From Escherichia phage SM_S24, in sequence record PP920554.1: a DNA stretch of 43,039 nucleotides. One strand, 5' to 3'. The position numbers and the translations under genes are program-made. Each line of letters starts with the position of its first letter. Position 1 is the first letter of the stretch. The notes below the pieces were generated by a model. It was given only the letters and a program-made list of their open reading frames with translations, had not been told where the DNA came from and searched no databases. Below are positions 5,574 through 41,638 of the stretch, one piece after another.

Positions 5574-5602
5574 TTTTGTGTCCTCGTTGTTGGTGTGCAA
5601 CC

Positions 5603-5631
5603 AATATATGCAACCAATACACGGATTGCAA
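5603..5631 (-). promoter_or_regulatory. sigma70-like promoter for the head-module moron, overlapping TGCAACCAAT boxes
   Basis: minus strand reads TTGCAA-17 nt-TATATT; spacer holds ATTGGTTGCA and a second copy lies just downstream. Confidence 0.45.
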
Positions 5632-5721
5632 GCTAATTTTGCGATTATTTTTATCGCTGATAATATTAGAAGCGTGAAGTCGAGCGGGTGGCCTGCTCTG
5701 CCACAATCCCAGGGGGATAGC

Positions 5722-6426
5722 ATGAAACTTACTAAAGCAGAATATGACGCGTTGCCGGAAGGTATGAAGGCGCTTTTTGTTGCCGATGGCGACGGGTATA
5801 AATCAACATTCATGACCGCCGAAGAAGTACAGGCGGAGATCAAGGGTCTGAAAGACAACAACGCTAAGCTGGTTAGCGAGAAGAAAGCAGAAGCTGAACG
5901 CCGCGCCGAAGCCGAGCGCCTTGCGAAAGAGAAAGAGGAAGCCGCCGCGCGCAAAAATGGCGACCTCGAAGCGATCGATAAGTCCTGGAAAGATAAGTTT
6001 GCAAAACACGAAGCAGACACATCGGGAAAAATCGAAGCCTACCGCAAGCAGATCCACGATCTCACCATCGGCAGCGCTGCCAAAGACCTGGCATCGAAGC
6101 TGTTCGGTAAGAATGCGGGCATCATGCAACGTCACGTTATGGACCGCCTGACGCTGGAAGACGGCGAAGACGGCAGCTTGAAAGTGCGTGTATTGCAGGA
6201 TGGCAAACCGTCCGCGCTGACTATGGAAGAGCTTGAAAAAGAGTTCCGTAATAACGCCGATTTTGCATCCGTCCTGGCTGGCACGCCAGCCGGTGGCGCA
6301 CCTAGCAAACCGACGCAGGTTGTCGAAGATGTGAAGTCGAAAATCACTATGGGCCACAGCTTCGGTATCACTGACCTTACGAAACAGGCAGGTGAAATCA
6401 TCGCTAAGATGGGCGACGACGAGTAA
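5722..6426 (+). CDS. scaffolding protein
   Basis: 234 aa from ATG 5722 (RBS AGGGGG); charged Ala/Glu/Lys-rich helical sequence (EKKAEAERRAEAERLAKEKEEAAARK); directly upstream of the major capsid gene. Confidence 0.6.
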   Translation: MKLTKAEYDALPEGMKALFVADGDGYKSTFMTAEEVQAEIKGLKDNNAKLVSEKKAEAERRAEAERLAKEKEEAAARKNGDLEAIDKSWKDKFAKHEADTSGKIEAYRKQIHDLTIGSAAKDLASKLFGKNAGIMQRHVMDRLTLEDGEDGSLKVRVLQDGKPSALTMEELEKEFRNNADFASVLAGTPAGGAPSKPTQVVEDVKSKITMGHSFGITDLTKQAGEIIAKMGDDE

Positions 6427-6523
6427 GCAGATTGCCCGCGAAAGCGGGCAATTTTGCGAGCGCGTAAATCTAAGGTAACATTAACGTCACTGGGCGAATG
6501 CTCACAACTCAAAGGATTTCGAT

Positions 6524-7618
6524 ATGTCTTTAACAGTGTTCCAGCGTAAACTCGTTACCGCGGTTACGCAAATGATCCCCGACAACCTGAACGTGTTCAA
6601 CGCCGCCGCCAATGGCGCTGTTGTTCTCGGTACTGGTGAAGTGCTGAAGGATGTTATTGAGAAAATGTCCGTAGGCTTGATCGCCAACCTCGTTACCGAC
6701 CGTAACGCCTACGCCCCTGTCGGCACTCCGGCAACCGCGAAAGTTCTGGCGCGTATGCTGACCAACTCGGTTAACCTTTCCGCAAAAGTGGGTCCGGTAG
6801 CAATCACTAAGGCTATGATGGCTAAGATCGAAACCAACGTTAACAGCGTTGCGGCTGAGATTGCGGCACAGGCTACTCAAGCGATTATGCTGCACTACCT
6901 GAAAGCTGGTATCGGCGCAAGTAAAGCGGCGATCGAAAGCAACGCAGCGGCAAAATACACCCAACCGGCGCGCGTTGACGGCGTTGGCGGTCGTACCTTC
7001 CCGACCCTGGCAGACTTCCCGCTGGCGGCTTCTAAGTTCGGCGATCAGGCGTCTTTGATTAAGTCCTGGTTTATGGACGGCGTTACCTGGGCAAACTTCA
7101 TTGCGTACCAGGCACTCCCTTCCGCTGAACAGGTATTCGCAATTGGCGATCTACAGGTAATGGGTGATGGCCTGGGCCGTCGATTCATTATCTCCGATGC
7201 CGCTGCCGATGCTATGGGTGCTGGTAACATGCTGGGTCTGGTTCCTGGCGCGGTTGCAGTTACCACCAACGGCCTCGATATGCTGGCGCAGGAGAAAGGC
7301 GGTAACGAGAACATCGAACGCTGGTGGCAGGGCGAGTTCGACTTCAACGTGGCCGTTAAAGGCTACCGTCTGAAGGCGTCCGCTCGTACCCCGATCGAAG
7401 GTGTGCGCTCGTTCAAACTGGACGATATTACCACTTCCGCTAACTGGGAACTGGACCAAGGCCAGGTAGACAACGCACCGGCAACCGTGCAGGACGTTGG
7501 TGGTGATAGCGACACTAAAGGCCGCCGCCGTACACAGACCGCGCAGGCAGTGCCGACCCGTCACATCAAGGAAACGGCTGGCGTACTGGTTACGCTGACT
7601 GCGACTACCGCGTCTTAA
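6524..7618 (+). CDS. major capsid protein
   Basis: 364 aa, RBS AAAGGA; follows scaffold and is followed by a strong intrinsic terminator, the usual arrangement for the most highly expressed head gene. Confidence 0.8.
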   Translation: MSLTVFQRKLVTAVTQMIPDNLNVFNAAANGAVVLGTGEVLKDVIEKMSVGLIANLVTDRNAYAPVGTPATAKVLARMLTNSVNLSAKVGPVAITKAMMAKIETNVNSVAAEIAAQATQAIMLHYLKAGIGASKAAIESNAAAKYTQPARVDGVGGRTFPTLADFPLAASKFGDQASLIKSWFMDGVTWANFIAYQALPSAEQVFAIGDLQVMGDGLGRRFIISDAAADAMGAGNMLGLVPGAVAVTTNGLDMLAQEKGGNENIERWWQGEFDFNVAVKGYRLKASARTPIEGVRSFKLDDITTSANWELDQGQVDNAPATVQDVGGDSDTKGRRRTQTAQAVPTRHIKETAGVLVTLTATTAS

Positions 7619-7634
7619 CGGGCGCAAATCCCAA

Positions 7635-7661
7635 AGGGGCGGGCTTATGCCCGCCTTTTTT
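7635..7661 (+). terminator. intrinsic terminator after the major capsid gene
   Basis: AGGGGCGGGC-TTAT-GCCCGCC followed by TTTTTT. Confidence 0.7.
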
Positions 7662-7676
7662 ATAGGAGTGAATGAA

Positions 7677-8177: not shown

Positions 8178-8178
8178 T

Positions 8179-8635: not shown

Positions 8636-8636
8636 C

Positions 8637-11184: not shown

Positions 11185-11185
11185 T

Positions 11186-11447
11186 GAAGCGGGACAAGCG
11201 GGACGCCCCGTTTTGTCCCGCCCCTGTAAAACTGCATATCTAATCACTTTCATTGCATAAACTCAAAGCGGGACAGGCGGGACGTCCCGTTTTGTCCCAC
11301 CCCTGAAATGTGCATACCTATTCGAATTTCGTGCATAAAACAAACGGGACAGAAAGCGGGACAAATGCGGGGCGGGACAAAGCGGGACAGCACCCCATCC
11401 CCACCAGTGCTGCCGCGGTTTTCAGCCGATCGGGACAGGCGGGACAA
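11186..11447 (+). repeat. array A of GCGGGACA(R) octamers with interspersed TGCATA(A) boxes
   Basis: at least 10 same-strand octamer copies (about 11189, 11198, 11268, 11277, 11343, 11355, 11372, 11382, 11431, 11439) plus inverted GTCCCGC copies; non-coding gap between GT stop and tape measure start. Confidence 0.8.
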
Positions 11448-11448
11448 A

Positions 11449-11500
11449 CCCCAGTCTTTCAGACTAGACGGGGGTCAACGGCCCCCCTCGTCTGAGACTG
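11449..11500 (+). other. conserved imperfect hairpin element, copy 1
   Basis: CCCCAGTCTTTCAGACTAGACGGGGG-TCAACGG-CCCCCCTCGTCTGAGACTG; both arms identical to the copy at 38331-38383, loop differs. Confidence 0.75.
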
Positions 11501-11569
11501 AATAAGGTTTGTTTTAAAATCGCTGATACAATGTCAATCGGCAACTGCATAAAAAAAGGGGACTGCATA

Positions 11570-21413: not shown

Positions 21414-21437
21414 AAAGCCCCGAAAGGGGCTTATTTG
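21414..21437. terminator. hairpin at the convergent junction of tail gene and lipoprotein gene
   Basis: AGCCCC-GAAA-GGGGCT followed by TATTT on the plus strand; T-rich on the minus strand too. Confidence 0.5.
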
Positions 21438-21649
21438 CAGGTTGTGCTTTTGAAGTGGTCGACCGACACATACTGGAAGTTGAATGGGTATCCCGCCCGT
21501 AACATTTTATGACCGCTAACGTCTGCAACCCCAAACACAGGGACGGAATACTCCACGCCACTATTCATGTATGTCGCGTCGCAGACTTTAGTCGGCATGT
21601 TGGCACAACCCGACAAAAGAACCCCACAAATCATAATTAAAGTTTTCAT
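21431..21649 (-). CDS. small lipoprotein, candidate superinfection-exclusion protein (Llp/Cor-like)
   Basis: 72 aa from ATG 21649 (RBS AGGAG, 8-nt spacer); signal peptide MKTLIMICGVLLSGC with lipobox LSGC; reverse orientation between tail fiber genes. Confidence 0.5.
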   Translation of the reverse strand: MKTLIMICGVLLSGCANMPTKVCDATYMNSGVEYSVPVFGVADVSGHKMLRAGYPFNFQYVSVDHFKSTTCK

Positions 21650-23376: not shown

Positions 23377-23898
23377 TTATTTAAGTGCGCCAGTCACCAG
23401 TGTTTTTTCCATGTTGCGGAAGTCTTCCGGCGTCATGAGGATTTTGGACCCGTCTTCGCCAGTTAGAACGACCATAGGCTGGACTTCTTGATCTGCAATG
23501 CCGAAATTGGCGGCTTTAACCATCTTGCCAGCCGATGCCGAAGGATGCCACGTACCTGCGGTGGCGATGGGCCAACCTTTAAGGCTGTCGTATTGCGCTG
23601 CCGTTGTATCGACCTGAATCTCGTCGTGAACGGTCATGTGGGATTCGCCCAGCAAGGCCGCATACGCTACCAGGTCGACGATATTGTCTTCCTGGTGCTT
23701 ACGGTGCTGGCGCACCAGCTTCAGGCAGATCAAGAAGGTCCAGGCTTCTTGCTCGGTAAGGTCACGACCGGTAAGCGCGTTAAACACGGCGGCAATTTGT
23801 TTCGCGCTGCGTTCCTCTTTCGCGTTGTCATAGCCGTTTTCTTTTCCGCGCTGTTCCATAGTGGTGGCGGCGTTTTTGCAGTATTCGTATGCTTTCAT
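23377..23898 (-). CDS. hypothetical protein
   Basis: 173 aa, RBS AGGA; promoter-like boxes and a 5' UTR hairpin upstream; no motif recognised. Confidence 0.45.
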   Translation of the reverse strand: MKAYEYCKNAATTMEQRGKENGYDNAKEERSAKQIAAVFNALTGRDLTEQEAWTFLICLKLVRQHRKHQEDNIVDLVAYAALLGESHMTVHDEIQVDTTAAQYDSLKGWPIATAGTWHPSASAGKMVKAANFGIADQEVQPMVVLTGEDGSKILMTPEDFRNMEKTLVTGALK

Positions 23899-23944: not shown

Positions 23945-23974
23945 ACTATAGTGCAACCAACCTATTGGTTGCAA
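23945..23974 (-). promoter_or_regulatory. sigma70-like promoter with inverted-repeat operator
   Basis: minus strand TTGCAA-18 nt-TATAGT; spacer holds palindrome TGCAACCAA-CCTA-TTGGTTGCA; a 5' UTR hairpin follows. Confidence 0.45.
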
Positions 23975-24432
23975 GTAAATTTTGCAACGTTTATTGCGTA
24001 AATTTTCGGGACCAAATCGCTGCACGCCCGACGAATTGCCGCGATGTTCTTCTCGCAGTCCTCAATGATGACCAGTTCAGACACGTCCGCGTAGCAGACC
24101 ATTTTGAACACGGCGCACGCCTTAAACTCTGGCGGCGGGGTGTCGTCCAGCATGTGGCGCATGAATAACCGGCCTACAGGGAAGACTTCCAGTTGTTTAG
24201 CGGTGGTGTCCCAACATTCTCGCTGCCGGTTGGTCAGATACGCGATCTCGAAGCCTTGCTCTTTATACATGCGCAGTAGCGGCAGCATATCCATGTTCAG
24301 GTCTTCGCGGACGTGCGCCTTGTGCCACTTCGCCCAAAAGGTGGATTTAGTTTTTATGCCAGGCACCAGATCGGCACGCGCATCGCTTGAGCCGTTAATA
24401 ACGCCATCCAAATCGCAAATCAGTAATTTCAT
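23962..24432 (-). CDS. HAD-superfamily phosphatase-like protein
   Basis: 156 aa; N-terminal LICDLDGVI matches HAD motif I (DxDG), downstream Thr (AYLTNR) plausible motif II. Confidence 0.5.
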   Translation of the reverse strand: MKLLICDLDGVINGSSDARADLVPGIKTKSTFWAKWHKAHVREDLNMDMLPLLRMYKEQGFEIAYLTNRQRECWDTTAKQLEVFPVGRLFMRHMLDDTPPPEFKACAVFKMVCYADVSELVIIEDCEKNIAAIRRACSDLVPKIYAINVAKFTCNQ

Positions 24433-24653: not shown

Positions 24654-25119
24654 GTAGCTCACTCTCGCTCATTATTTCAATTTGTGCGCTGCCGCATGGC
24701 GGCGCTTCGTCAAATATTATCAATTGCTGGCACTTGTTATTGCTCGGCCCGACTTCACCGGTTACAGCATGTATGAATCGGATCCGCCAGTCCAGAAGAA
24801 TTATCAGGTTTGCAGTCTTCCTGGCCAGCTTCGCCCACTTCGTCGACGTGTCCTGATTCAGTAGCATGACCGTCCGGCGTCCGTGCGCTGCGCACTCTAC
24901 CCACGGCAGCGGATCGGAATACGGCGGATTGCACCACTTCCACCCTTTCAACTCGGACCAGTCCACATCAAGCGCGCTGTGTTCCGCCGTGAAGTAACGT
25001 GGTAGCAGATGATTGGTGTCGCTTGCCGCCATATCGTAACGGAATCGGTATTTCTGACGAAGCGGTTTAAATAAAGCTGGCGGCGTGCGCCAGCTATCTT
25101 TTTGCTCATTCTCCGTCAT
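24634..25119 (-). CDS. DNA N6-adenine methyltransferase (phage Dam-like)
   Basis: 161 aa; WRTPP near the N-terminus, DMAASD and catalytic CNPPY motifs typical of small phage N6-adenine methyltransferases. Confidence 0.75.
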   Translation of the reverse strand: MTENEQKDSWRTPPALFKPLRQKYRFRYDMAASDTNHLLPRYFTAEHSALDVDWSELKGWKWCNPPYSDPLPWVECAAHGRRTVMLLNQDTSTKWAKLARKTANLIILLDWRIRFIHAVTGEVGPSNNKCQQLIIFDEAPPCGSAQIEIMSESELHEYLNR

Positions 25120-25564
25120 AGTCGGGATCTATCGCATACAGGGCGGTTTTCTTGCCACTGGATAGCACGCGTTGGACTCGGGATAGCTCCGCCCTACTGA
25201 GCGGTCGGCTATCGGAATAGTAGCTGCCGTTTGCACGCCACGCTATACGCACCAGTCCTTTCCGCGGGATCGAAGACTGGCTGCCCTTCGGACGGACGTA
25301 CTCCTCGGCCAGTTTGCAATGCTCGCGCAGACCTTCGGCAGTGATGCGGTTTAGCGCGACGGTGGTTGTGTACCCGGTGCGCTGCATAATACCCATCAAC
25401 TCATACAGCAGTTCGAAGCGCTCCTCTAACTCCTTGCGCATCTTTTCCTCGCCTTCATAGCTCGCCATGTAGGTATCCGCCAGCGCGTTCGCCCGTTCGA
25501 CCTGTTCGCGGGCTTCGAGGCATTGCGCGGCCCAGTAATTTTTCTCTTCTTGTAAAATTTTCAT
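25106..25564 (-). CDS. hypothetical protein
   Basis: 152 aa, RBS GGAGA; first gene of a leftward operon downstream of paired TGCAACCAAT boxes. Confidence 0.4.
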   Translation of the reverse strand: MKILQEEKNYWAAQCLEAREQVERANALADTYMASYEGEEKMRKELEERFELLYELMGIMQRTGYTTTVALNRITAEGLREHCKLAEEYVRPKGSQSSIPRKGLVRIAWRANGSYYSDSRPLSRAELSRVQRVLSSGKKTALYAIDPDYDGE

Positions 25565-28348: not shown

Positions 28349-28522
28349 TTATTTTTGCTCTGCGCGGTAGCGGCGCTGCCGTTCGCGCTCTTTTTTATTG
28401 CGGCACGATTTGCACTCGGCCCGATACCCGTCCGGGCTGCGTGCAGTCTTACCAGTGTATTTATGGAACTGGGATAGCGGTTTAATGCAGCCGCAATTAC
28501 TGCAACGTTTTTCTTCAATCAT
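28349..28522 (-). CDS. zinc-ribbon protein
   Basis: 57 aa from ATG 28522 (RBS GAGGG); two CxxC pairs (CSNCGC...CKSC) and basic C-terminus. Confidence 0.4.
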   Translation of the reverse strand: MIEEKRCSNCGCIKPLSQFHKYTGKTARSPDGYRAECKSCRNKKERERQRRYRAEQK

Positions 28523-32134: not shown

Positions 32135-32199
32135 TTTCCAATTCCTCATTTTCACATGTATCGGGGTTATTATGAGCCACCCCGTTCGGCTTGGTTGCT

Positions 32200-32228
32200 A
32201 ATCTACTTGGTTGCGCCTAAGCGGTCAA
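32200..32228 (-). promoter_or_regulatory. sigma70-like promoter for the SSB operon
   Basis: minus strand TTGACC-17 nt-TAGATT; GCAACCAAG in the spacer and again just downstream of the -10. Confidence 0.45.
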
Positions 32229-34378: not shown

Positions 34379-34894
34379 CTAATCTTCCAGTTCGAAATAG
34401 GTTTCGACGATTTCTTTTAGCTCTTTGTGGAAGTCTTCGACGTCGTCATCTTCCAGCTTGGCGATTGATTTGATCTCGAACGATTCCAGCAGGTCGTCGA
34501 ATTCGTCGATCGCATCGTCGTCATCGCCACCGGCGATAATCGCGGCATACTGTTTGATTTCGTCGCGCATCTCTGCCAGCGGGTCGGCATCTTTCTTACC
34601 TTTGCCTTTCGCCGGTGCTTTCTTAGACTTAGCCGGTTTTTCGTCTTCGGCATCGTCGTCGTCATCTTCTACGACTTCTTTTTTAGCCTTACCTTTCGCC
34701 GGTGCTTTTTTAGATTTAGCCGGTTTTTCGTCTTCAGCTTCATCGTCGTCATCTTCGACAACTTCTTTTTTCGCCTTAGATGGCTTTTTATCTTCCTGCT
34801 TACCAACGGCAGCGCCAACGGTTTCATAATGTTTAGCGATTGTTTCCAGTGCTACTACGCCGCGAGTAATCAGGTTTACGATTTGTTCGAACAT
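34379..34894 (-). CDS. acidic mixed-charge repeat protein (first leftward early gene)
   Basis: 171 aa from ATG 34894 (RBS GGAG); two tandem KPAKSKKAPAKGKAKKEVVEDDDDDAEDE repeats and a strongly acidic C-terminus; own sigma70-like promoter upstream and intrinsic terminator downstream. Confidence 0.5.
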   Translation of the reverse strand: MFEQIVNLITRGVVALETIAKHYETVGAAVGKQEDKKPSKAKKEVVEDDDDEAEDEKPAKSKKAPAKGKAKKEVVEDDDDDAEDEKPAKSKKAPAKGKGKKDADPLAEMRDEIKQYAAIIAGGDDDDAIDEFDDLLESFEIKSIAKLEDDDVEDFHKELKEIVETYFELED

Positions 34895-35090
34895 GGTATA
34901 TCTCCGATTGGTTAAGTTTAGGTGTCGGCAGTTAACTTCGTCGGTGGCCTTAACATATTGCCCGGTTGCGCGTTCTCCCGTTCGGGTAGTGGACCGGGTT
35001 ATATAATCACGGTTGGGAATCCTGACACTTCGATCCGGCCCCTGCGTTGCCCCTCTCCAGTTTGCGTCCTGCATCCTGTCGACGGAGTGA

Positions 35091-35120
35091 ATGATAGATT
35101 GGTTGCAGGATGGGTGTCAA
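35091..35120 (-). promoter_or_regulatory. leftward early promoter (sigma70-like)
   Basis: minus strand TTGACA-18 nt-TATCAT; TGCAACCAAT box inside the spacer. Confidence 0.55.
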
Positions 35121-35131
35121 CAACTAATTTC

Positions 35132-35165
35132 AAAAAAAAAGCGCCGAGGCAAAATGCACCGGCGC
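35132..35165 (-). terminator. intrinsic terminator upstream of the leftward early promoter (minus strand)
   Basis: GCGCCGGTGCATTTTGCCTCGGCGC followed by nine T on the minus strand. Confidence 0.6.
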
Positions 35166-35195
35166 TAACCAATAAGAGACAATGAGACGGGAATT

Positions 35196-35224
35196 ATTAT
35201 TACACGCGTGCGCGCCCGTTTCAA
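35196..35224 (-). promoter_or_regulatory. second leftward promoter-like element upstream of the terminator
   Basis: minus strand TTGAAA-17 nt-AATAAT; predicted start about 58 nt upstream of the 35132-35165 terminator end. Confidence 0.35.
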
Positions 35225-35236
35225 TATCCAAAGGAT

Positions 35237-35265
35237 TTGACACCTTGTGGTTTTAGGTGTAGTTT
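35237..35265 (+). promoter_or_regulatory. rightward early promoter for the HTH regulator gene
   Basis: TTGACA-17 nt-TAGTTT, back-to-back with the leftward promoter elements. Confidence 0.5.
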
Positions 35266-35296
35266 CATTGGTCATTAGCCAACAGGAGACTGAATT

Positions 35297-35626
35297 ATGA
35301 ATATCAAAGAAGCAATTGAAGTGTTATCTAATGCAATCCGCGGCGAAGCGGGTAAATCCTGGTATTACACAAATGCGGTGGATACTCTGTTATTTGAAGT
35401 GTCCAGATTATCGCGTGCTGAGAAGGAGCTTACCGCGAAGCTGGAATTACTCAACGGTACGGCAGCAAGCAAGCTGCAAAAGCACAATGAAGAAATGGAA
35501 GAATACAAAAAACAGGTTATCCGTCTACGTGAGGAAGGTAAATCCTGGGCGATGATTGCCGAGTTGACCGGAATTAATCAGAGCACAGTGCGCTCCTGGG
35601 TACGCAATAATAAAACTTCTAAGTAA
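35297..35626 (+). CDS. HTH DNA-binding protein (putative transcriptional regulator)
   Basis: 109 aa, RBS AGGAG; C-terminal helix-turn-helix-like segment WAMIAELTGINQSTVRSWV; first rightward gene at the divergent promoter region. Confidence 0.55.
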   Translation: MNIKEAIEVLSNAIRGEAGKSWYYTNAVDTLLFEVSRLSRAEKELTAKLELLNGTAASKLQKHNEEMEEYKKQVIRLREEGKSWAMIAELTGINQSTVRSWVRNNKTSK

Positions 35627-35636
35627 GGCCACGGCA

Positions 35637-37901
35637 ATGAGCTTAATTAAATTCGCTGTAACAAGACCCGCTAAAAAAGGCGAAAAAGCCAGGGCGGAAA
35701 ACTTCCAGATGACTACCGAAGAGTTTTTCGAATTTATCAATGATGCGAAAGAAATCTCCTCGGTGCATATCAACAAAACGGAAGATAAAGCCGAGTATGC
35801 ACGCCGCAAGCGTAAGGCCGACGGCATCGTGGCGTATACCAGTGACGGATTGCGTCGCAAGACCAGTGCGGTGGACCGCTCGATCCTGTTCTTCGATATT
35901 GACCGTACTGACACCCGCACCCTACGCCGCTGCCGTAAGGCGTTCATCGACGCGGGACTGGAGCACGTCTTCCACACCACAACCGGCGACCGTCACCCAC
36001 TGAAAGGTGGAACGCGTTGCGCTCGCTTCCTGGTGTTGACCGACAAGCCTGTACCGGCTGAAGACCTGGGCCGTGTCCAGTATGCGCTATTACACCAACT
36101 GGGCCTGTCAGATGTGGACTTCGACGACTGCACGAAAGACACAAACCGCCTTATGTACCTACCACACCAGCAGTCTGTTATTAAGTGCCACTATGGCAAG
36201 CGCGCCCGCGTCCGTCGTCTGCTTCGCCTGGCTGACAAGCTGGGAGTTGAGAAAGAGGAAGTCCGCCGCGAACTGACCCAGGGCGACGACGCAGTGGCAG
36301 ACGGCATTCTGGACTGGTGCTTCCAGGCAGGATTCGAGGAGTTATCTTCCGGTCGGGGTTATGAAGTGCCGTGCCCGAACGAACATCTGCACAGCGGCGA
36401 AGGGTCGACGGCTATCATGGTCAAGGATGGCGAGATCCGTTTCAAGTGTATGCACACAGGCAACGAGTGTTGCTCGGAACTGAATAGGCACCAGCACCTG
36501 GCGCTACGTCTTATCGGGATCCCGGACCACCTGAACGTCGAGCCACACAATATGTCCCGTAAGCAAATCGCCGCCATCCTTCCGGGGCTGGACGACGAAG
36601 AAGTCGAATCCTTATATGAACATATTGTTGATGCAGTTGGCGACGGCGAAGAATACGGCGTGTGCACCGATGCAGATCTGGATAACGAGCCGGTTGCGCT
36701 GTTCAGTAAGCACGACCCGATTATCGAGGGGTTGATTAACTTTAAATCGACCTGGTACATGGCGGGTGAGTCGAATATCGGTAAGTCTTTCTACGTGCTG
36801 GGCCAGATGGGTGCGGTTGCCGCGGGGATTCCGTTCGGCGGTGCGAAGGTCGTCCAGTCTCATTGCTTCTATTTCGACGCGGAAGGTGGTGAAGCCTCCA
36901 ACCAGCGTAAGGAAGCACTGCAGATCAAATATGAGCACGACCTGGATAAGCTGCACATTATAGACCTGCAGTCACGCGGCTGGGATATCACCAGCAAATC
37001 AGGCTTGCGCGAAGTTATCAGCTTTATCAACCGCACCGCTAACGGCGAACCGGTTGGCCTGGTGGCGTTCGACTCTCTCAACCAGACTGTTGCGCTGCGG
37101 TCCGCCGATGCTAAACCGTTCGACGAGAACAACGCCAGCGATATGGGCGAAGTGGTAAAAGCGCTGAAAGCCATCGCGGAAAATACCGGCGGCAGTGCTG
37201 GCGTCATCCACCACCCGGCGAAGGGTGCAAACGGCAGCAGATCCCCCCGCGGGTCCGGCGCGCTGCATGGTGCTGTTGATTCTGCGTTCTTCCTTGAGCA
37301 ACCGGACGACAACCAGCCAGGCCAATTGAACCTGTATCACGAAAAGGCACGTAACGGCATCAAGCAAGCGCCGCGTGGCTTCGTCCTGCTCAAGTGCAAG
37401 GTGAAGGTAGATCTCCGCAAGTCAGAAGCGTTCGCGTCGCACCAGTCCACCAGCACCGGTCCGGACTTCGGCGACGTGGTTGCCGGATGGGACGTCAAGC
37501 CGATTGCCTCCACGCCACGCGACGAGACTCTCTACCTCGTACCGGTTGCCCTGGCACCGTTCGCTATTGAACAGGCGAAGGCCGCGGGCAAAGCAGCAGT
37601 TAAAGAAGAGAACACCGCCGGACCGCGCAACGAAAAAGAGAAAGTGCTCTATGCGGCACTGGAAAAACTGATGGAAGATAACCCGGACCATACTGGATTC
37701 AGTAAATCGGCAATTGTCCGCCAGGCTGGGCTGGCAAAAGGTGGCACTTCGACGAAGGCAATCGACGATATGGTGGAGCGAGGAGTGATAGGTTTTTACA
37801 CCGATCCGCACACCGGGGCCATCTATGGGTCGTCTAATTTGGTCATCAAATCGGATATACCCATCACGCTTTCAGCGACCGATGACGATTTAAAAGATTA
37901 A
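35637..37901 (+). CDS. primase-helicase (AEP-type primase, zinc-binding region, P-loop NTPase)
   Basis: 754 aa; N-terminal DxD-type motif ILFFDIDRTD, Cys/His cluster CPNEHLHSGE...CMHTGNEC, Walker A GESNIGKS and Walker B-like LVAFDSL; iteron array begins at its stop codon. Confidence 0.7.
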   Translation: MSLIKFAVTRPAKKGEKARAENFQMTTEEFFEFINDAKEISSVHINKTEDKAEYARRKRKADGIVAYTSDGLRRKTSAVDRSILFFDIDRTDTRTLRRCRKAFIDAGLEHVFHTTTGDRHPLKGGTRCARFLVLTDKPVPAEDLGRVQYALLHQLGLSDVDFDDCTKDTNRLMYLPHQQSVIKCHYGKRARVRRLLRLADKLGVEKEEVRRELTQGDDAVADGILDWCFQAGFEELSSGRGYEVPCPNEHLHSGEGSTAIMVKDGEIRFKCMHTGNECCSELNRHQHLALRLIGIPDHLNVEPHNMSRKQIAAILPGLDDEEVESLYEHIVDAVGDGEEYGVCTDADLDNEPVALFSKHDPIIEGLINFKSTWYMAGESNIGKSFYVLGQMGAVAAGIPFGGAKVVQSHCFYFDAEGGEASNQRKEALQIKYEHDLDKLHIIDLQSRGWDITSKSGLREVISFINRTANGEPVGLVAFDSLNQTVALRSADAKPFDENNASDMGEVVKALKAIAENTGGSAGVIHHPAKGANGSRSPRGSGALHGAVDSAFFLEQPDDNQPGQLNLYHEKARNGIKQAPRGFVLLKCKVKVDLRKSEAFASHQSTSTGPDFGDVVAGWDVKPIASTPRDETLYLVPVALAPFAIEQAKAAGKAAVKEENTAGPRNEKEKVLYAALEKLMEDNPDHTGFSKSAIVRQAGLAKGGTSTKAIDDMVERGVIGFYTDPHTGAIYGSSNLVIKSDIPITLSATDDDLKD

Positions 37902-38167
37902 ATTTTGCGCGCATTGGTCGCCGTTATGGGAATCCCCATATCGGTAAAAGATTAAATTTTGCGCGCATTGGTCGCCGTTATGGGAATCCCCATATCGGTA
38001 AAAGATTAAATTTTGCGCGCATTGGTTGCCATTTTGCGTGCTTTTAGCCGGTCGTTAAAAGATTAAATTTTGCGCGCATTGGTCGCCGTTATGGGAATCC
38101 CCATATCGGTAAAAGATTAAATTTTGCGCGCATTGGTTGCCATTTTGCGTGCTTTTAGCCGGTCGTA
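37892..38167. repeat. iteron array, candidate origin of replication
   Basis: five tandem 54-57 bp units (A-A-B-A-B) sharing core AAAAGATTAAATTTTGCGCGCATTGGT(C/T)GCC with the 8-bp palindrome TGCGCGCA; begins at the primase-helicase stop codon. Confidence 0.6.
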
Positions 38168-38194
38168 TTGGTTGCCGTGTAGTGTAAATATAAT
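38168..38194 (+). promoter_or_regulatory. promoter-like element upstream of GGGACA array B
   Basis: perfect TATAAT at about 38189-38194 with weak -35 (TTGGTT, 15-nt spacer) inside an ATTGGTTGCC box. Confidence 0.35.
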
Positions 38195-38224
38195 GAATAG
38201 TTATGCAGTTTTATTGCATAAAGT

Positions 38225-38330
38225 AAGCGGGACAAAAAGCGGGACAGACCAGGGGCGGGACAAAGCGGGACAGCACCCTGTCCCGCCCCGGATGACGCGG
38301 CCTGGCGAGGAGCGGGACAGCGGGACAGCA
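38225..38330 (+). repeat. array B of GCGGGACA(R) octamers
   Basis: copies at about 38227, 38239, 38255, 38265, 38312, 38321 plus inverted TGTCCCGC at 38279; preceded by a TTATGCA/TGCATAA inverted pair and a TATAAT box. Confidence 0.8.
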
Positions 38331-38383
38331 CCCCAGTCTTTCAGACTAGACGGGGGGTCTGGCACCCCCCTCGTCTGAGACTG
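38331..38383 (+). other. conserved imperfect hairpin element, copy 2
   Basis: CCCCAGTCTTTCAGACTAGACGGGGGG-TCTGGCA-CCCCCCTCGTCTGAGACTG; arms identical to copy 1. Confidence 0.75.
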
Positions 38384-38542
38384 CATAAAATCCGGGATTG
38401 CATAACGCACGGCAACAAGATGCGAATTGCGGTCGTCGATGAACTAGGCAACCAATGCGCGTTGCAGAATGGTGGGCGAAAAATGCAGTTTGCAGTTGCA
38501 GCAGATAGCGATCAACTTTTTCATGCGCGTGATTAATATTGG

Positions 38543-38571
38543 TTGCATTCACCCTGGCACCCTGCTATTTT
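38543..38571 (+). promoter_or_regulatory. promoter-like element upstream of the 38600 operon
   Basis: TTGCAT-17 nt-TATTTT; -35 inside ATTGGTTGCAT, second TTGGTTGCA just downstream; region nearly identical to the moron 5' region. Confidence 0.45.
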
Positions 38572-38599
38572 GGTTGCACACCAACAAGAGGACTGAACG

Positions 38600-38926: not shown

Positions 38927-38935
38927 GAGGCCAAA

Positions 38936-39205
38936 ATGACCCGTAGACGCGCAAAACAGCTTTCGTGGCATATTCCCCTGCATTGCATACGAATATGGGC
39001 TAAGAATGCGAATGCGGGGGATTCTGTATTCTGGTGTTATCGCGACGACGTTAAGCCGTTGACGCAGACTCGCTACTTGCACCAGTTCGCAGCACAACAC
39101 GATTTCAGGGTGCGGACTTCCTTGCAACCAACGGGAATACGTATTACATTACGCCGGAAGCCCGCCGTTGAGCGGGTAGGCAAACACTGGAGACTGAGCA
39201 AATGA
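38936..39205 (+). CDS. hypothetical basic protein
   Basis: 89 aa, RBS AAGAGG; Arg/Lys-rich. Confidence 0.45.
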   Translation: MTRRRAKQLSWHIPLHCIRIWAKNANAGDSVFWCYRDDVKPLTQTRYLHQFAAQHDFRVRTSLQPTGIRITLRRKPAVERVGKHWRLSK

Positions 39206-39354
39206 CACCAATGCAAATAACGCTAATGGCAGGGTATTCGCAGCAATTCGTAGACCTGTTATCTTGCATTGCGGACTATGAGATGGACGGCATCGCTACG
39301 GTGTGCGATGGCGACACGAAGACTGTCGACGAGATTGAGGAGACTGAGCAATGA
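39202..39354 (+). CDS. hypothetical small protein
   Basis: 50 aa, ATG 39202 with GGAG upstream, ATGA coupling to the next gene; below the track size cutoff. Confidence 0.3.
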   Translation: MTPMQITLMAGYSQQFVDLLSCIADYEMDGIATVCDGDTKTVDEIEETEQ

Positions 39355-39923
39355 AATTACTATTCCGCCGTAAAGCAGATGGCTACCTAATGCGGCCGAT
39401 CCAGGCCCTTGCTACATGCGTGCGCTTGCGCCATGTACACAGCGGACTTGAGTGCCTGGCAGATACGGTTCACCTACCGGCAAACTTTGACGTACTCACA
39501 CATGATATTGAGCGCGGCGATGTTCTGCGTGACATTCGCGACGGGCAGCTATGGATCGTGGAACGCACCTACCGGAACGGCCTGCGTATGCAGACCCGCA
39601 AGGGCGGCGTAGTGGGTAACGTTCAGAGGGGTATGACTTACTTCGGCCTTGTCAACTACGAACGAGTGGGCCGCAAATACTGCCTACGCAACCGCCAGCC
39701 TCATGACCGCGTTGAGTTCCGCAAGTCGCAGCCCGCCTATGCCACCTACGACGCCCACCAGGTGCAGGCGAGGATGAAACGCACCGCGCACGAAATCGTC
39801 AATCGCTTTGATGCCGTGACAAACGCACAGCGCCGTGCGCAGGAATACGGCGTTGGATTCATCCGGGTGGAACGAGACGGCAGCATGAAGGCCATCGACC
39901 CGCGCTCGGTGATTCTGAAATGA
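39351..39923 (+). CDS. hypothetical protein
   Basis: 190 aa, RBS GAGGAG; no motif recognised. Confidence 0.45.
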   Translation: MKLLFRRKADGYLMRPIQALATCVRLRHVHSGLECLADTVHLPANFDVLTHDIERGDVLRDIRDGQLWIVERTYRNGLRMQTRKGGVVGNVQRGMTYFGLVNYERVGRKYCLRNRQPHDRVEFRKSQPAYATYDAHQVQARMKRTAHEIVNRFDAVTNAQRRAQEYGVGFIRVERDGSMKAIDPRSVILK

Positions 39924-40060
39924 GTGCGACGATCCGCGATATGCTTCAGCATAACCGCTTTGAGATAGGCGGTCGGGTATTTCGCAATTACTTCGTGGCG
40001 CGGGCATGGGCGCGCCATATTGGCAAACCAGAGGGGGCAATACGATGCTACACGATTTGA
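39920..40060 (+). CDS. hypothetical small protein
   Basis: 46 aa, ATGA coupling with the upstream gene; hand-translated, below the track cutoff. Confidence 0.25.
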   Translation: MSATIRDMLQHNRFEIGGRVFRNYFVARAWARHIGKPEGAIRCYTI

Positions 40061-40332
40061 TATATTGGTTTGGATTGGGGTGCGCGACACTCTTTGCCAC
40101 GGTGCTGGCGCTGTTGGTATGGGTGTTCCTGATTTGGCCCGCGGTGGAGGCAGCCAGCATTACCCGCATGACGTTCCAGATATACAAGCGCCGTGGCATC
40201 ACTGAGCACCCTACCAGGTTGCGCATGTGGTGGCTATGGTATCGGGATATGATAGGGGGCCGGATGTTCGAGGCCGTCCGATCGGAAGGGTGGGAGTGGA
40301 AAGGCGTCGGCAAGTGGTCCATTTTCGATTAA
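40045..40332 (+). CDS. small membrane protein (hypothetical)
   Basis: 95 aa from ATG 40045 (RBS GAGGGGG); hydrophobic helix LGCATLFATVLALLVWVFLIW. Confidence 0.35.
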   Translation: MLHDLIYWFGLGCATLFATVLALLVWVFLIWPAVEAASITRMTFQIYKRRGITEHPTRLRMWWLWYRDMIGGRMFEAVRSEGWEWKGVGKWSIFD

Positions 40333-40343
40333 TTATGCAAGCG

Positions 40344-40352
40344 TGATATAGT
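40344..40352 (+). promoter_or_regulatory. extended -10-like element (TGaTATAGT) inside the 5' arm of the pre-holin hairpin
   Basis: TG, one nt, TATAGT; a transcript started here would begin within the hairpin stem. Confidence 0.3.
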
Positions 40353-40384
40353 CCCAGTGAGCTAAAACTTACTGGGACTTTTTT
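40350..40384 (+). terminator. intrinsic terminator hairpin immediately upstream of the holin start codon
   Basis: AGTCCCAGTGAG-CTAAAA-CTTACTGGGACT followed by TTTTTT; the T-run ends at the holin ATG. Confidence 0.6.
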
Positions 40385-40675
40385 ATGGATAAGCTAAACG
40401 AGTGGTTATTTGCCCTCGCATGTCTGGCTGGCGGCTTCGTAGGCGCACGCATTCATGGCGAGGCTACGAAAGGGCCGCTAAACTTCGTTTTATATATCGT
40501 AGTTGGCTTCCTGTGTGCCATATTTGGTGCGCCAGCTATCGCCGAGTGGGCGGGCTTATCTGGCGAGCGCACTGTCGCCGGTTTGGGCTTCGTAACTGCA
40601 ATCTTCTGGATGCCAATAGCCGCCCGGATCAGGGGGACTATTGAGTCGTTCCGACTTCCGGGGGGCGCAAAATGA
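40385..40675 (+). CDS. holin (putative)
   Basis: 96 aa with two to three hydrophobic segments; immediately upstream of the endolysin gene and preceded by a terminator hairpin. Confidence 0.5.
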   Translation: MDKLNEWLFALACLAGGFVGARIHGEATKGPLNFVLYIVVGFLCAIFGAPAIAEWAGLSGERTVAGLGFVTAIFWMPIAARIRGTIESFRLPGGAK

Positions 40676-40917
40676 GTATCACCGTCCTTTTGTTTGTTAT
40701 CATCGGGGCTTCGTCCCTGTTTAACGTGTATGCGCCGTCCGTTCAGGATGGCTTCTTCGGTCGGGTGTTATATCTGCTTACGGCGATGGTCTGCATTATC
40801 GGACTGTTGCAAACCGGAGACGTATCTGACGCCACCTGGACCGCGTTAATCTGGTTGTTTGCATTGCGCACGCTGCGTAATGCTGTTCTAAATGGGGTAA
40901 AACATGCGATTCAGTGA
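40672..40917 (+). CDS. holin/antiholin-like small membrane protein
   Basis: 81 aa with two hydrophobic helices; overlaps both the upstream holin and the endolysin start. Confidence 0.4.
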   Translation: MSITVLLFVIIGASSLFNVYAPSVQDGFFGRVLYLLTAMVCIIGLLQTGDVSDATWTALIWLFALRTLRNAVLNGVKHAIQ

Positions 40918-41395
40918 CAACGGTCTAAGATTTACGGCAGCATGGGAGCAATTCAGCCCAGTGCCGTATTTTGCGACTAAGAAAGAGCAGGCACGCGGCC
41001 TGTACACCTGGGGCTATGGGCACACCGGCACTAATCCGCCGCGGAGCATTACCCGTGCGGAAGCACTGGAGCTACTCAAGCGCGACGTGGCGTATGCCGA
41101 AAACTGGGTGAACAAGTACGCACACCCGAGCATCAATCAGGCGCAATTCGACGCGCTGGTGGACCTGGTTATCAATGCCGGTCCAGGTCCGATCATGCCG
41201 GACAACATCGCCAACGACTTTGACGACGCGGTGCGCCTGGGTGACTGGGCGAAGGTCCGTGCGACTCTGCCGCAGTTCCGCAAGCAAGGCGGGGAAGTGC
41301 TGAAAGGGCTGGTCCGTCGAGCAATCGGCAGGCAGGCGCTATTCGATGGTAAGCAGTGGGACGTTGCCGAGAAAATCGGTCGTAACGCAGCATAA
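40904..41395 (+). CDS. endolysin, lysozyme-like (GH24-type)
   Basis: 163 aa; TAAWEQF...GLYTWGYGHTG signature resembling T4/lambda-type lysozymes; lysis-cassette position. Confidence 0.8.
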   Translation: MRFSDNGLRFTAAWEQFSPVPYFATKKEQARGLYTWGYGHTGTNPPRSITRAEALELLKRDVAYAENWVNKYAHPSINQAQFDALVDLVINAGPGPIMPDNIANDFDDAVRLGDWAKVRATLPQFRKQGGEVLKGLVRRAIGRQALFDGKQWDVAEKIGRNAA

Positions 41396-41411
41396 TACGA
41401 GGTAACACAGT

Positions 41412-41573
41412 ATGCTAAAAAGTATTCTTGATCATAATGCCGACGCGCTCGCCGCGCTGGCTAAAACCGAAGACCCAGGCGCACGCGCCATTATCGCGGA
41501 CACTATCAGTCACGCTGGCGTCTTTGACGCGAAGCTGCCGAGTCCGCCACCGCCCGCAGAGCCAGAAGAGTAA
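41412..41573 (+). CDS. hypothetical small protein
   Basis: 53 aa (MLKSILDHNADALAALAKTEDPGARAIIADTISHAGVFDAKLPSPPPPAEPEE), followed by an intrinsic terminator. Confidence 0.3.
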   Translation: MLKSILDHNADALAALAKTEDPGARAIIADTISHAGVFDAKLPSPPPPAEPEE

Positions 41574-41578
41574 ACCAC

Positions 41579-41604
41579 AAGCCCGGTTAATTCCGGGCTT
41601 TTTA
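41579..41604 (+). terminator. intrinsic terminator after the lysis cassette
   Basis: AGCCCGG-TTAATT-CCGGGCT followed by TTTTAT. Confidence 0.6.
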
Positions 41605-41608
41605 TTGC

Positions 41609-41638
41609 TTGACTTGCAACCAATTAATAGCTCATACT
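41609..41638 (+). promoter_or_regulatory. promoter-like element upstream of the leader-like peptide and HTH-phosphoesterase gene
   Basis: TTGACT then TGCAACCAAT in the spacer, -10-like CATACT, second TGCGACCAAT downstream. Confidence 0.4.

Follow-up and report, generated by a model that had tools for sequence, protein, structure and literature searches.

A nine-base box at predicted promoters of Escherichia phage SM_S24 and a small zinc-ribbon protein as its candidate binder

The stretch of DNA analyzed here (the window; 43,039 nucleotides) represents a near-complete genome of the Escherichia phage SM_S24, a Dhillonvirus (an HK578-like, lytic coliphage). A short box with the consensus wwTTGGTTGCA and the invariant core TGGTTGC is found on nearly every predicted promoter of its non-structural genes, and again in the repeats of a putative origin of replication (Table 1). 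One of these promoters precedes the gene that the first-pass annotation had described as a moron at position 5573, which is the minus-strand Nmad5 gene; because this gene runs on the minus strand, its promoter contains the box pair 5596/5609.

Table 1. Predicted box promoters (P1-P9) and associated features of the window
Feature	Coordinates	Strand	Description
P1	5596-5617	-	Promoter of Nmad5 gene 5019-5573; direct boxes 5609-5617 and 5596-5604, 13-bp period; TTGCAA (5631-5626), N8, box, TATATT (5608-5603) overlapping second box and likely start site
P2	21704-21712	-	Single box, its TTGCAA as -35; 17-bp spacer; GATACT (21685-21680); serves gene 21431-21649 (minus), with the annotation superinfection exclusion / lipoprotein
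P3	23952-23973		Inverted pair TGCAACCAA-ccta-TTGGTTGCA; serves gene 23377-23898 (minus); layout in minus-strand sense, TTGCAA (23974-23969, in reversed box), 18 bp containing box 23960-23952, TATAGT (23950-23945)
P4	25619-25644	-	Direct pair, 17-bp period; serves gene 25106-25564 (minus); box 1 as -35 TTGCAT (25640-25635), box 2 in spacer, -10 TATCTT (25617-25612)
P5	28566-28586	-	Direct pair, 12-bp period, directly upstream of candidate binder gene 28349-28522; box 1 TTGGTTGCT (28586-28578) gives -35 TTGCTG, box 2 TTGGTCGCA (28574-28566) within spacer, -10 TATAGT (28559-28554)
P6	32191-32215	+	TTGGTTGCT at 32191, TTGGTTGCG at 32207, reversed relative to minus-strand SSB-polymerase operon promoter; TTGACC (32228-32223), 17 bp with one box, TAGATT (32205-32200), second box 1 nt downstream
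P7	35099-35107	+	Reversed box in 18-bp spacer of leftward promoter TTGACA (35120-35115) / TATCAT (35096-35091); first gene of operon 34379-34894 (minus)
P8	38539-38578	+	Boxes 38539 and 38570, 31-bp period; upstream of 38600 operon extending into lysis genes; box 1 as -35 TTGCAT (38543-38548), variable 17-bp spacer, TATTTT (38566-38571) overlapping box 2 and start site
P9	41615-41646	-	Two boxes, reversed relative to plus-strand promoter; upstream of gene 41811-42953; TTGACT (41609-41614), box 41615-41623 in spacer, CATACT (41633-41638), box 41638-41646
HTH-gene degenerate palindrome	35268-35282	+	TTGGTCATTAGCCAA, directly after -10 TAGTTT (35260-35265), which pairs with -35 TTGACA (35237-35242); TTGGT-N5-ACCAA layout as at P1 and P8, conserved in 16 Dhillonviruses
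Isolated box variant	38447-38455	-	TTGGTTGCC, between repeat region and P8
Gene-internal exact box	39123-39131	-	Inside gene 38936-39205; kept in HK578 and Over9000
Repeat array	37901-38176	+	Five 54-57 bp units directly 3' of primase-helicase gene; putative origin of replication
Candidate box binder	28349-28522	-	57 aa ("gp39", Over9000 numbering): MIEEKRCSNCGCIKPLSQFHKYTGKTARSPDGYRAECKSCRNKKERERQRRYRAEQK
HTH protein	35297-35626	+	109 aa; coiled-coil N-terminus, C-terminal HTH (HTH_23 / Sigma70_r4_2-like)

Exact copies of the 9-base sequence TTGGTTGCA occur 12 times in the window, while 0.45 copies are expected from Markov-1 simulations, whose maximum was 4. Those of the minus strand are at 5596, 5609, 21704, 23952, 25619, 25636, 39123, and 41615, those of the plus strand at 23965, 35099, 38539, and 38570. 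All sites listed in the first-pass annotation are present, several of them with coordinates off by one, and the enrichment over coding DNA that it had set as a check of its proposal was observed: 10 of the 12 exact copies are intergenic, although intergenic DNA makes up just 7.8% of the window (binomial P = 5e-10). Likewise, 16 of the 20 copies of the 8-mer TTGGTTGC fall between genes (P = 6e-15), and an unbiased count ranked GCAACCAA/ATTGGTTGC as the top k-mer for intergenic enrichment. Of the two exact copies that are formally coding, the one at 23965 occupies the final codons of a gene and is one half of the P3 inverted pair; only the copy at 39123 truly lies in the interior of a gene. When a single mismatch was tolerated, 25 matches were found vs. 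10.7 +/- 3.1 in dinucleotide shuffles, a number reached in 0 of 100 shuffles. These one-mismatch copies complete the pairs at additional promoters (28566/28578, 32191/32207, and 41638), occur singly at 38447, and are present in the repeats 3' of the primase-helicase gene (38022, 38133, and 38168).

The reading of the box as a shared cis-regulatory site at promoters, often in pairs, is upheld by its overlap with promoter elements, its variable placement and orientation, and its footprint-like conservation. Boxes are single or paired, with a pair spacing of 12, 13, 17, 23, or 31 bp in direct or inverted arrangement, and in both orientations they cover sigma-70-like core elements, i.e., the -35 hexamer, the spacer, or the -10/+1 region. 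In a sequence scan, the box promoters showed -35- and -10-like hexamers 16-18 bp apart upstream of genes, and the three best consensus promoters recovered by an independent scan (35120-35091, 32228-32200, and 23974-23945) all contain boxes. The first of these, P7, matches the sigma-70 consensus at 11 of 12 positions and is the best match between 20 and 40 kb. As had been suggested, the box either supplies the -35 hexamer or sits in the spacer, and this is seen, for example, at the predicted promoters P2, P4, P5, P7, and P8. When we searched six genomes for box-derived TTGCAN 16-18 bp upstream of TAnnnT, 23 of 129 pattern matches (18%) had this arrangement, mostly with a spacing of exactly 17 bp, compared with a background of 3.6%. 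The near-identity of two leader regions, TAT(A/T)TTGGTTGCACACCAACAA(C)GAGGA, was also confirmed; they lie at 38566-38592 and, on the minus strand, at 5573-5610. Alignments of 3-16 Dhillonviruses show invariant boxes at P4, P7, P8, and P9 next to spacer bases that vary. Such overlap combined with conservation is the pattern seen when an operator is bound by a diffusible DNA-binding protein. The palindrome with fixed half-site spacing typical of dimeric HTH (Cro/CI) operators was not found at the boxes, which are asymmetric 9-mers; a weak TTGGT-N5-ACCAA dyad is present only at P1, P8, and the promoter of the HTH gene.

Box variants were correctly placed by the first-pass annotation inside iteron units: the repeats that follow the primase-helicase gene carry TTGGTCGCC at 37914, 37968, and 38079, TTGGTTGCC at 38022 and 38133, and another variant at 38168. 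A box variant is present in every one of the five units. The window contains tandem direct repeats adjoining an initiator-like gene, as is the case for iterons. Equivalent box clusters lie near the primase-helicase gene in phages eiAU, Tsm2, and VLCpiS11a.

The box regulon extends to at least five lineages besides Dhillonvirus, including the Edwardsiella phage eiAU, the Serratia phage Tsm2, the Klebsiella phage VLCpiS11a, and several metagenomic lineages. Phage eiAU-183, whose primase-helicase is 46% identical to that of the window, has 25 matches to TTGGTYGC that are mostly intergenic, and in VLCpiS11a GCAACCAAC was found 10 times in intergenic and 0 times in coding DNA. The regulon is absent from equally distant relatives, among them Snoke (E. 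coli) as well as GRNsp27 and Ent1 (Salmonella). Only one protein of the window, the 57-aa product of gene 28349-28522, has homologues in all box-bearing lineages and in 0 of 9 box-less relatives, a correlation that comprises perhaps five to seven independent lineages and in which several of the negative loci are partial genomes. A tblastn search with this protein returned no Salmonella Jersey-like or Kagunavirus record among its matches. As a test of prediction, we inspected lineages found solely through homologues of this protein (L156/L157, L172, L174, and L239-L242); all of them carry [T/C/A]TGGTTGC boxes in intergenic DNA, and some possess a different primase family and have no homologues of the primase-helicase and HTH proteins of the window. 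In every lineage examined, boxes are positioned about 60 bp upstream of the gene for the homologue in a P5-like architecture, a placement at the candidate binder's own promoter that suggests an autoregulatory layout.

The 28349-28522 product combines a Cys4 (CxxC...CxxC) zinc ribbon, whose pattern (C7, C10, C37, and C40) is invariant in the family, with a basic C-terminal helix. An AlphaFold2 model (mean pLDDT 76) shows the zinc ribbon and a basic helix spanning residues 38-56. When the model was compared with known structures, no DNA-binding domain matched it significantly; the highest-ranking match, a weak one, was the tandem zinc finger of Stc1, a protein-interaction module. The same zinc module is also attached to Endo VII and HNH nucleases. 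Databases label the protein "Lar-like," "HNH," or "KilA." The first of these labels traces to PHROG 5558 (E = 2e-16), itself an annotation, and an identity as a Lar restriction-alleviation protein is not supported, as no Pfam Lar match was found. A Pfam scan with E-values up to 10 yielded only chance-level matches to DUF6510, Zn_ribbon_RPB9, and Zn_ribbon_NUD, and none to Ogr_Delta. Our literature searches retrieved no paper on the function of this protein family and no binding or transcription results for any of these phages.

Helix and box vary together. Proteins with the motif C-K-x-C-R-(N/R) are accompanied by TTGGTTGC, and proteins with C-x-x-C-R-C-A by CTGGTTGC at all of their sites; in the clade in which RCA replaces RN or RR in the helix, every box has changed to CTGGTTGCA. 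This covariation of CTGG with RCA may represent a single evolutionary event. Lineage L174 retains an RNKK helix, yet its boxes read ATGGTTGC, and the proposed read-out of the flanking bases is therefore not simple.

Taken together, the sequence comparisons lead us to favor the view that the box is recognized by a small DNA-binding protein that the phage itself encodes, probably the zinc-ribbon/basic-helix product of 28349-28522. The co-distribution of site and protein suggests that this Cys4 protein may control the promoters, and it points to the zinc ribbon rather than to the HTH protein as the binder. Because the site is asymmetric and the geometry of the pairs is loose, one protein might occupy one box as a monomer. 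Occupancy would most simply occlude the promoter, so that early and middle transcription would be throttled or switched off as the protein accumulates, along with transcription from its own promoter, P5. An activator or a promoter-specificity element would account equally well for boxes that sit precisely at -35 and precede a 17-bp spacer.

This latter arrangement is the basis for a reading in which the box acts positively as a promoter element: TTGGTTGCA would replace or extend the -35 region for the zinc ribbon or for an RNA polymerase that it has modified, thereby defining a phage-specific (middle) promoter class, while copies in the spacer or at +1 would repress, as in the dual switches of phi29 p4 and T4 MotA. 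The predominance of the 17-bp spacing to a -10 element that is often TATAGT speaks for it, as does the embedded -35, TTGCAN, which fits the consensus at just three to four of six positions; furthermore, in P6, P7, and P9, which possess a consensus -35 of the type TTGAC(A/C/T), the box is instead found in the spacer, in reversed orientation. However, a promoter made up of TTGCAA, a 17-bp spacer, and TATAGT should suffice for sigma-70 alone, a 57-aa protein bound at the -35 hexamer would be in competition with sigma region 4, and many promoters with a box at -35 also hold a second box in the spacer. We consider a positive element unlikely.

The other alternatives assign the box to a different protein. 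The first-pass annotation regarded the HTH protein 35297-35626 as the obvious binder, and such a protein heading the rightward operon could act as a Cro-like early regulator. It is a credible DNA-binding protein, with matches to HTH_23 and Sigma70_r4_2 (E about 1e-6) and a conserved HTH domain joined to an N-terminus that exists in three allelic forms; its own promoter contains a degenerate TTGGT-N5-ACCAA site, and a perfect box is present in the divergent promoter. Yet the protein is confined to Dhillonvirus and thus is probably not the box binder: the regulon occurs without any homologue of it in eiAU (eiAU-183), Tsm2, VLCpiS11a, and the metagenomic box lineages, as well as in L156/157 and L239-242. 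The corresponding genome position of these phages is taken by HTH proteins of the Cro/CI type that are unrelated to it and have recognition helices unlike one another's. Other repeats of the window, the TATGGGAATCCCCATA palindrome or GCGGGACA, could be its targets, and its binding to the boxes appears improbable. The N-terminal domain of the 41811 product, put forward alongside it, is not supported either, with no homologue in eiAU-183, Tsm2, VLCpiS11a, or the metagenomic box lineages. Quite improbable, too, is that the boxes are iterons read by an origin-binding domain of the primase-helicase (35637-37901), with the promoter copies coupling replication to transcription. Initiator-type precedents for such coupling are DnaA boxes, plasmid Rep proteins, and SV40 T antigen; in Dhillonvirus, eiAU, Tsm2, and VLCpiS11a, the 3' end of the primase-helicase gene contains or is closely followed by box clusters, and box-less relatives have different repeats at the same place. 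Nevertheless, L156/L157, L241, and L242 possess boxes and no homologue of this enzyme, and neither its N- nor its C-terminal domain covaries with the repeat type: C-termini diverge most strongly in the three TTGGTTGC lineages (30-43 bits), whereas relatives with differing repeats have similar ones (110-150 bits). Phages of Escherichia, Edwardsiella, Serratia, and Klebsiella share an identical 9-mer at a protein identity of just 40-60%, which might instead reflect a conserved DNA-binding protein of their Enterobacterales hosts. We regard this as very improbable, since same-host relatives such as Snoke (E. coli) and GRNsp27 and Ent1 (Salmonella) lack the box and its flanking bases shift in concert within a lineage (CTGG, ATGG) together with a phage protein; to our knowledge, no E. 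coli factor recognizes this site.

With the 28349-28522 zinc ribbon as the preferred candidate, the system can be compared with several known ones. In the temperate Cluster A mycobacteriophages L5 and Bxb1, an HTH immunity repressor recognizes 13-bp stoperators, most of which point the same way with respect to transcription and which affect elongation. Many short asymmetric sites scattered across intergenic DNA, some of them on promoters, are common to both systems, and one phage protein binds the stoperators as a monomer, a mode that we infer for the box. Unlike stoperators, which lie throughout transcription units, the boxes are found in a lytic phage, in both orientations and on core promoters rather than in operon interiors, and their candidate binder is a zinc ribbon. 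The activators P2 Ogr and P4 Delta (about 60-70 aa) are, like the candidate controller of this promoter set, small phage Cys4 zinc proteins; however, their target is a dyad, TGT-N12-ACA, around position -55 of late promoters instead of asymmetric 9-mers on the core promoter, and Pfam detected no sequence relationship. Plasmid Rep iterons and DnaA boxes resemble the box as short asymmetric sites present in a tandem array and at promoters, including that of the (candidate) binder itself, but there the binder is the initiator, whereas the box does not vary in step with the initiator-like primase-helicase. Phi29 p4 and T4 MotA (box at -30) are phage switch proteins that act on promoters of the host RNA polymerase, and a protein of this type can repress other promoters. 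Their families are unrelated to the zinc ribbon, activation is a rival reading for the box, and no counterpart of AsiA, which MotA needs, was identified. Common to these switches and to the box promoters is a phage box at or near -35 combined with a retained sigma-70-type -10 element.

The window covers nearly the entire genome of a lytic, HK578-like E. coli siphophage of the Dhillonvirus group, for which more than 150 related records are available. Dhillonviruses are common and easy-to-handle coliphages that are present in the BASEL collection and are employed in many defence-system studies; we know of no description of their transcription programme. Phage Over9000 matches the window over its full length with 94-97% identity, and its annotation was carried to the window coordinates by tblastn, with adoption of its gene numbers.

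All sites at which the first-pass annotation had placed a recurrent intergenic box are present in the sequence, a few coordinates being off by one. Exact copies of the 9-base box TTGGTTGCA number 12 in the window, where Markov-1 simulations predict 0.45; 25 matches are found when up to one mismatch is allowed, compared with 10.7 +/- 3.1 in dinucleotide shuffles. The frequency of the box differs between intergenic and coding DNA: 10 of the 12 exact copies fall into the 7.8% of the window that is intergenic (P = 5e-10), as do 16 of the 20 copies of the 8-mer TTGGTTGC (P = 6e-15), and an unbiased k-mer count of the window returned GCAACCAA/ATTGGTTGC as the top intergenic-enriched word. The box is also contained, as had been proposed, in the iteron units, each of the five carrying a copy (see the table), and the near-identity of the leaders of the gene at 5573 and of the 38600 operon is real. 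The former gene had been labeled a moron; it is a minus-strand gene encoding an Nmad5-domain protein, so that the box pair at 5596/5609 does fall within its promoter. A scan of IMG/VR for pairs of the type TTGGTTGCA-N2-32-TTGGTTGCA was uninformative, most of what it recovered being tandem repeats within coding DNA or unrelated sequence resembling a -35; Rfam gave no match to the window, and nothing relevant turned up in the literature searched on the motif, on promoters of Dhillonvirus or HK578, or on Lar-like proteins. The motif and its regulon are real, and they appear to be undescribed.

Every box, whether single or paired, overlaps a predicted sigma-70-like promoter directed into the neighboring gene (P1-P9). 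The box had been suggested to serve as the -35 or to lie in the -35/-10 spacer, with a second copy just downstream of the -10, and these layouts indeed occur among the nine promoters (see the table). The spacer box is reversed in P6, P7 and P9, promoters that possess a consensus -35 (TTGAC(A/C/T)). An independent consensus promoter scan selected P7 (11 of 12 positions), P6 and P3; since its total number of promoter-like matches was no higher than chance, the remaining assignments rest on geometry and position. Among 129 matches to the pattern [ACT]TGGT[TC]GCN in six box-bearing genomes, 23 (18%) have the TTGCAN of the box 16-18 bp (mostly exactly 17) upstream of TAnnnT, against a background of 3.6%. 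The HTH gene promoter (35237-35265) is followed by the degenerate TTGGTCATTAGCCAA, with the TTGGT-N5-ACCAA layout also seen in the P1 and P8 leaders.

Box layouts in the predicted promoters, the box-bearing origin repeats, and box variants sorted by zinc-ribbon sequence
Feature	Location or occurrence	Context	Box
Layout 1	P2, P4, P5, P8	followed by 17-bp spacer and good -10	3' part (TTGCAN) is the -35
Layout 2	P1, P3, P4, P5, P6, P7, P9		within the spacer, either orientation
Layout 3	P1, P6, P8, P9	covers likely start site	over or directly after the -10
Putative origin repeat array, five units of 54-57 bp	37901-38176	3' of primase-helicase gene	TTGGT(C/T)GCC in each unit
C-x-x-C-R-C-A	L156/L157, L241, L242 (phage or metagenomic loci)	residues after second CxxC	CTGGTTGC at all sites
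C-K-x-C-R-(N/R)	window, eiAU, L172, VLCpiS11a, L239, L240, Tsm2	residues after second CxxC	TTGGTTGC at all sites

Alignment of 3-16 non-identical Dhillonviruses shows no change in the boxes, whereas bases of the same spacer vary freely, most clearly in P4, P7, P8 and P9; the equivalent places in HK578 and Over9000 also carry boxes. Such conservation, as judged from aligned genomes, resembles a footprint and speaks for sequence-specific constraint at the DNA level. That the box varies in position and orientation relative to the -35 and -10 points to a separate DNA-binding factor rather than to a fixed RNA polymerase contact. To our knowledge, neither the conserved TTGGTTGCA nor the pair spacings fit the sites of sigma-54, CytR, PdhR/GntR-type regulators, NtrC, FNR, or DnaA.

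The obvious binder had seemed to be the helix-turn-helix (HTH) protein encoded at 35297-35626 (+), a credible DNA binder by sequence with three allelic N-termini and a conserved HTH; among PDB sequences it matches only 8VD6, a repeat protein of de novo design that is irrelevant here. Its distribution led us to reject it: there is no homologue outside Dhillonvirus, and the distant relatives that carry the box, gathered with the primase-helicase (35637-37901) as probe, possess other HTH proteins. One of them, Edwardsiella phage eiAU-183 (hereafter eiAU; primase-helicase 46% identical), has 25 TTGGTYGC matches, mostly intergenic, with box pairs in the promoters that serve the SSB gene and the gp39-like region and a cluster of eight boxes immediately after the primase-helicase gene; at the position of the HTH gene it encodes an unrelated Cro-type HTH. 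In Serratia phage Tsm2, four boxes fall within the 3'-terminal part of the primase-helicase gene and a further one within the divergent promoter region; this phage, too, encodes a Cro-type HTH. These Cro-like proteins were discarded in turn, being absent from Dhillonvirus and differing in their recognition helices. The primase-helicase had initial appeal, as the box clusters are located at its gene. It was rejected as the binder, however: its terminal domains (compared by identity and bit score) do not covary with the type of repeat, the C-termini diverging most of all in the three TTGGTTGC lineages, and boxes occur in lineages that lack it. Equally distant relatives (L018-L025, L027, Salmonella phages GRNsp27 and Ent1, and E. 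coli phage Snoke) lack the box and have other repeats at the same location. A very permissive all-against-all phmmer comparison of window and eiAU proteins returned only noise.

A presence/absence table of all window proteins in box-bearing and box-less relatives singled out gp39 (Over9000 numbering), a 57-residue zinc-ribbon protein encoded at 28349-28522 (-) and preceded by P5. Homologues are present in eiAU and Tsm2 and in none of nine box-less loci, of which four include the syntenic helicase-polymerase interval and some are partial genomes. When gp39 was compared by tblastn with the phage collection, the matches included Klebsiella phage VLCpiS11a and comprised no Salmonella Jersey-like phage and no Kagunavirus. 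VLCpiS11a contains 13 TTGGTTGC sites (10 intergenic), two boxes directly upstream of its gp39 homologue, and a top intergenic word, GCAACCAAC, with 10 intergenic and no coding copies. Another match, Yersinia phage vB_Yep_9, was not a fair test case, since in this T7-like phage the module probably belongs to a nuclease. A metagenomic homologue (P0003, 65% identical) is found on contigs whose replication module is a different one (DUF5906 primase, AAA_24, DEAD helicase) and which lack homologues of both the primase-helicase and the HTH protein of the window. Their top intergenic word, CTGGTTGC, has 6-7 copies in fewer than 750 intergenic bases versus one coding copy, and the promoter layouts of the window recur, with direct pairs of 12 bp (upstream of the homologue) and 17 bp and with an inverted pair that precedes an Nmad5 gene. 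In the updated table, gp39 is the only window protein common to all five box-bearing lineages, a correlation that covers a limited number of independent lineages. Four more lineages recovered by profile search (L239-L242) again contain boxes, including pairs just upstream of the gp39-type gene. Among 80 IMG/VR loci retrieved with the family alignment, TGGTTGC occurs at 3.3 times expectation (55 vs. 16.8) where the homologue stands alone, but at 1.2 times (65 vs. 54) where the module resides in a protein of more than 110 amino acids. The residues after the second CxxC vary with the box (see the table); locus L174 is an exception, with RNKK kept and the box ATGGTTGC.

The gp39 protein has four invariant cysteines (C7, C10, C37, C40) and a basic tail, and its AlphaFold2 model (mean pLDDT 76) predicts a zinc ribbon and, after it, a helix (residues 38-56); Foldseek found nothing significantly similar to this model in the PDB. 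Most remote relatives contain several repeats and match the Pfam Stc1 zinc finger, a protein-interaction module, and in PHROGs the gp39 module is further linked with Endo VII and HNH nucleases. The module has 874 cluster representatives, most with 200-700 amino acids, 2-9 tandem copies and Stc1 matches (proteins P0004-P0152); stand-alone proteins of 54-87 amino acids are a minority. No Pfam match supports the names that databases give it, "Lar-like restriction alleviation protein," "HNH endonuclease," or "KilA anti-repressor," and no functional study of a gp39-type protein was found in the literature searched. The probable box regulator is a member of an uncharacterised zinc-ribbon family.

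Several features were recorded alongside. Box promoters precede the genes for the Nmad5 (nucleotide-modification-associated) protein (5019-5573, -), a DUF6378 protein (23377-23898, -), and a HAD-phosphatase-like protein (23962-24432, -). Homologues of Nmad5, the HAD-phosphatase and the DUF6378 protein (gp30) adjoin the zinc-ribbon gene in the unrelated L156/L157 lineage, and the three genes may form a DNA-modification module. The box-less loci L022, L024, L027 and L151 have primase-helicase termini that are alike one another and lineage-specific repeats at the 3' end of that gene, namely TCCGACAG in L022, AGGGATAA in L024, and TGTTGGCTG(C), one base from the Dhillonvirus box, in L027 and phage GRNsp27; no zinc-ribbon homologue was found in these partial loci. 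The HTH gene and the first ~200 primase-helicase codons form a mosaic block exchanged together (window 35297-36240; HK578 35575-36600), with 40-72% identity between HK578 and the window inside the block and 98-100% over the rest of the primase-helicase. The annotated 231-amino-acid reading frame at 34379-35074 (-) probably starts at an internal ATG at 34894 (MFEQIV...), in agreement with the eiAU and HK578 homologues and preceded by a GGAG ribosome-binding site; this start leaves a regulatory region of ~400 bp (34895-35296) with a leftward terminator-like hairpin (35139-35170).

A second intergenic repeat family, GCGGGACA (15-17 intergenic vs. 3-5 coding copies), is clustered at 11185-11520, upstream of the tape-measure gene, and at 38227-38395, between the origin repeats and P8 and near the genome end and terminal repeat of the WF5505 record. 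Both clusters end in the same ~60-nt sequence (ccccagtctttcagactagacggggg...cccccctcgtctgagactg), which can fold as a long hairpin, and neither matches Rfam. Dhillonvirus WF5505 (NC_073060.1) has a direct terminal repeat of ~2 kb (1-2030 and 45057-47082), and because the left end of this record corresponds to a point shortly before the P8 operon of the window, P8 and the origin region would be located at a physical genome end. The word AATTTTGCG has seven intergenic copies (5635, 6450, 37901, 37955, 38009, 38066, 38120) and no coding one; it forms the -35 region (TTGCGA, N16, TAATAT or TAACAT) of the likely scaffold and major capsid promoters, opens each 54-bp origin repeat unit, and may regulate late genes as a second element of this kind. 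The near-palindrome TATGGGAATCCCCATA lies in three of the five origin units (37925-37945, 37979-37999, 38090-38110), where a dimeric protein, possibly that with the HTH, could plausibly bind.

As the likeliest mechanism, we propose that gp39 would be expressed both as part of the leftward early operon and from P5, its own promoter with boxes, and would bind single boxes as a monomer. Since the boxes lie on the -35, in the spacer, or over the -10/+1 region, their occupancy should block RNA polymerase, and gp39 would repress the non-structural promoters globally, its own included. It might have a dual role, activating where the box replaces the -35 and repressing elsewhere, and the box array at the putative origin may link it to replication or serve as a titration sink. 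The residues after the second CxxC would set the preferred box: proteins of the L156/L241/L242 type (C-x-x-C-R-C-A) would favor CTGGTTGCA, that of the window TTGGTTGCA. Across phage genomes, the presence of a stand-alone homologue would go with intergenic enrichment of NTGGTTGC.

More tentatively, as a reading that is less likely than not, one might see gp39 as the founder of a new family of minimal, monomeric zinc-ribbon/basic-helix regulators, in which the core reads TGGTTGC and the helix tunes the flanking bases; in several genera of Enterobacterales siphophages, nearly every non-structural promoter would be under the control of a single protein of this kind, which would repress from spacer and +1 boxes, might activate at the -35, and would occupy origin repeats, thereby coupling transcription to replication. 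If so, tandem arrays of the module (up to nine copies) in larger proteins could be modular DNA readers.

One 9-bp box on about 10 promoters and in the origin repeats provides an almost complete promoter map of a Dhillonvirus and a one-protein handle on the gene-expression programme of the phage. If gp39 is the binder, a global regulator lies behind its three database labels, and a 57-residue domain with 8-9 bp specificity and a natural variant (TTGG vs. CTGG) would offer a compact, engineerable DNA-binding part. As a phage-wide regulon, the box system is akin to the asymmetric repressor sites of Cluster A mycobacteriophages and to the regulons of the zinc-finger factors Ogr of phage P2 and Delta of phage P4, and its iteron/operator duality resembles that of plasmid Rep proteins and DnaA; yet it stands apart from each of these systems and belongs to none of them.
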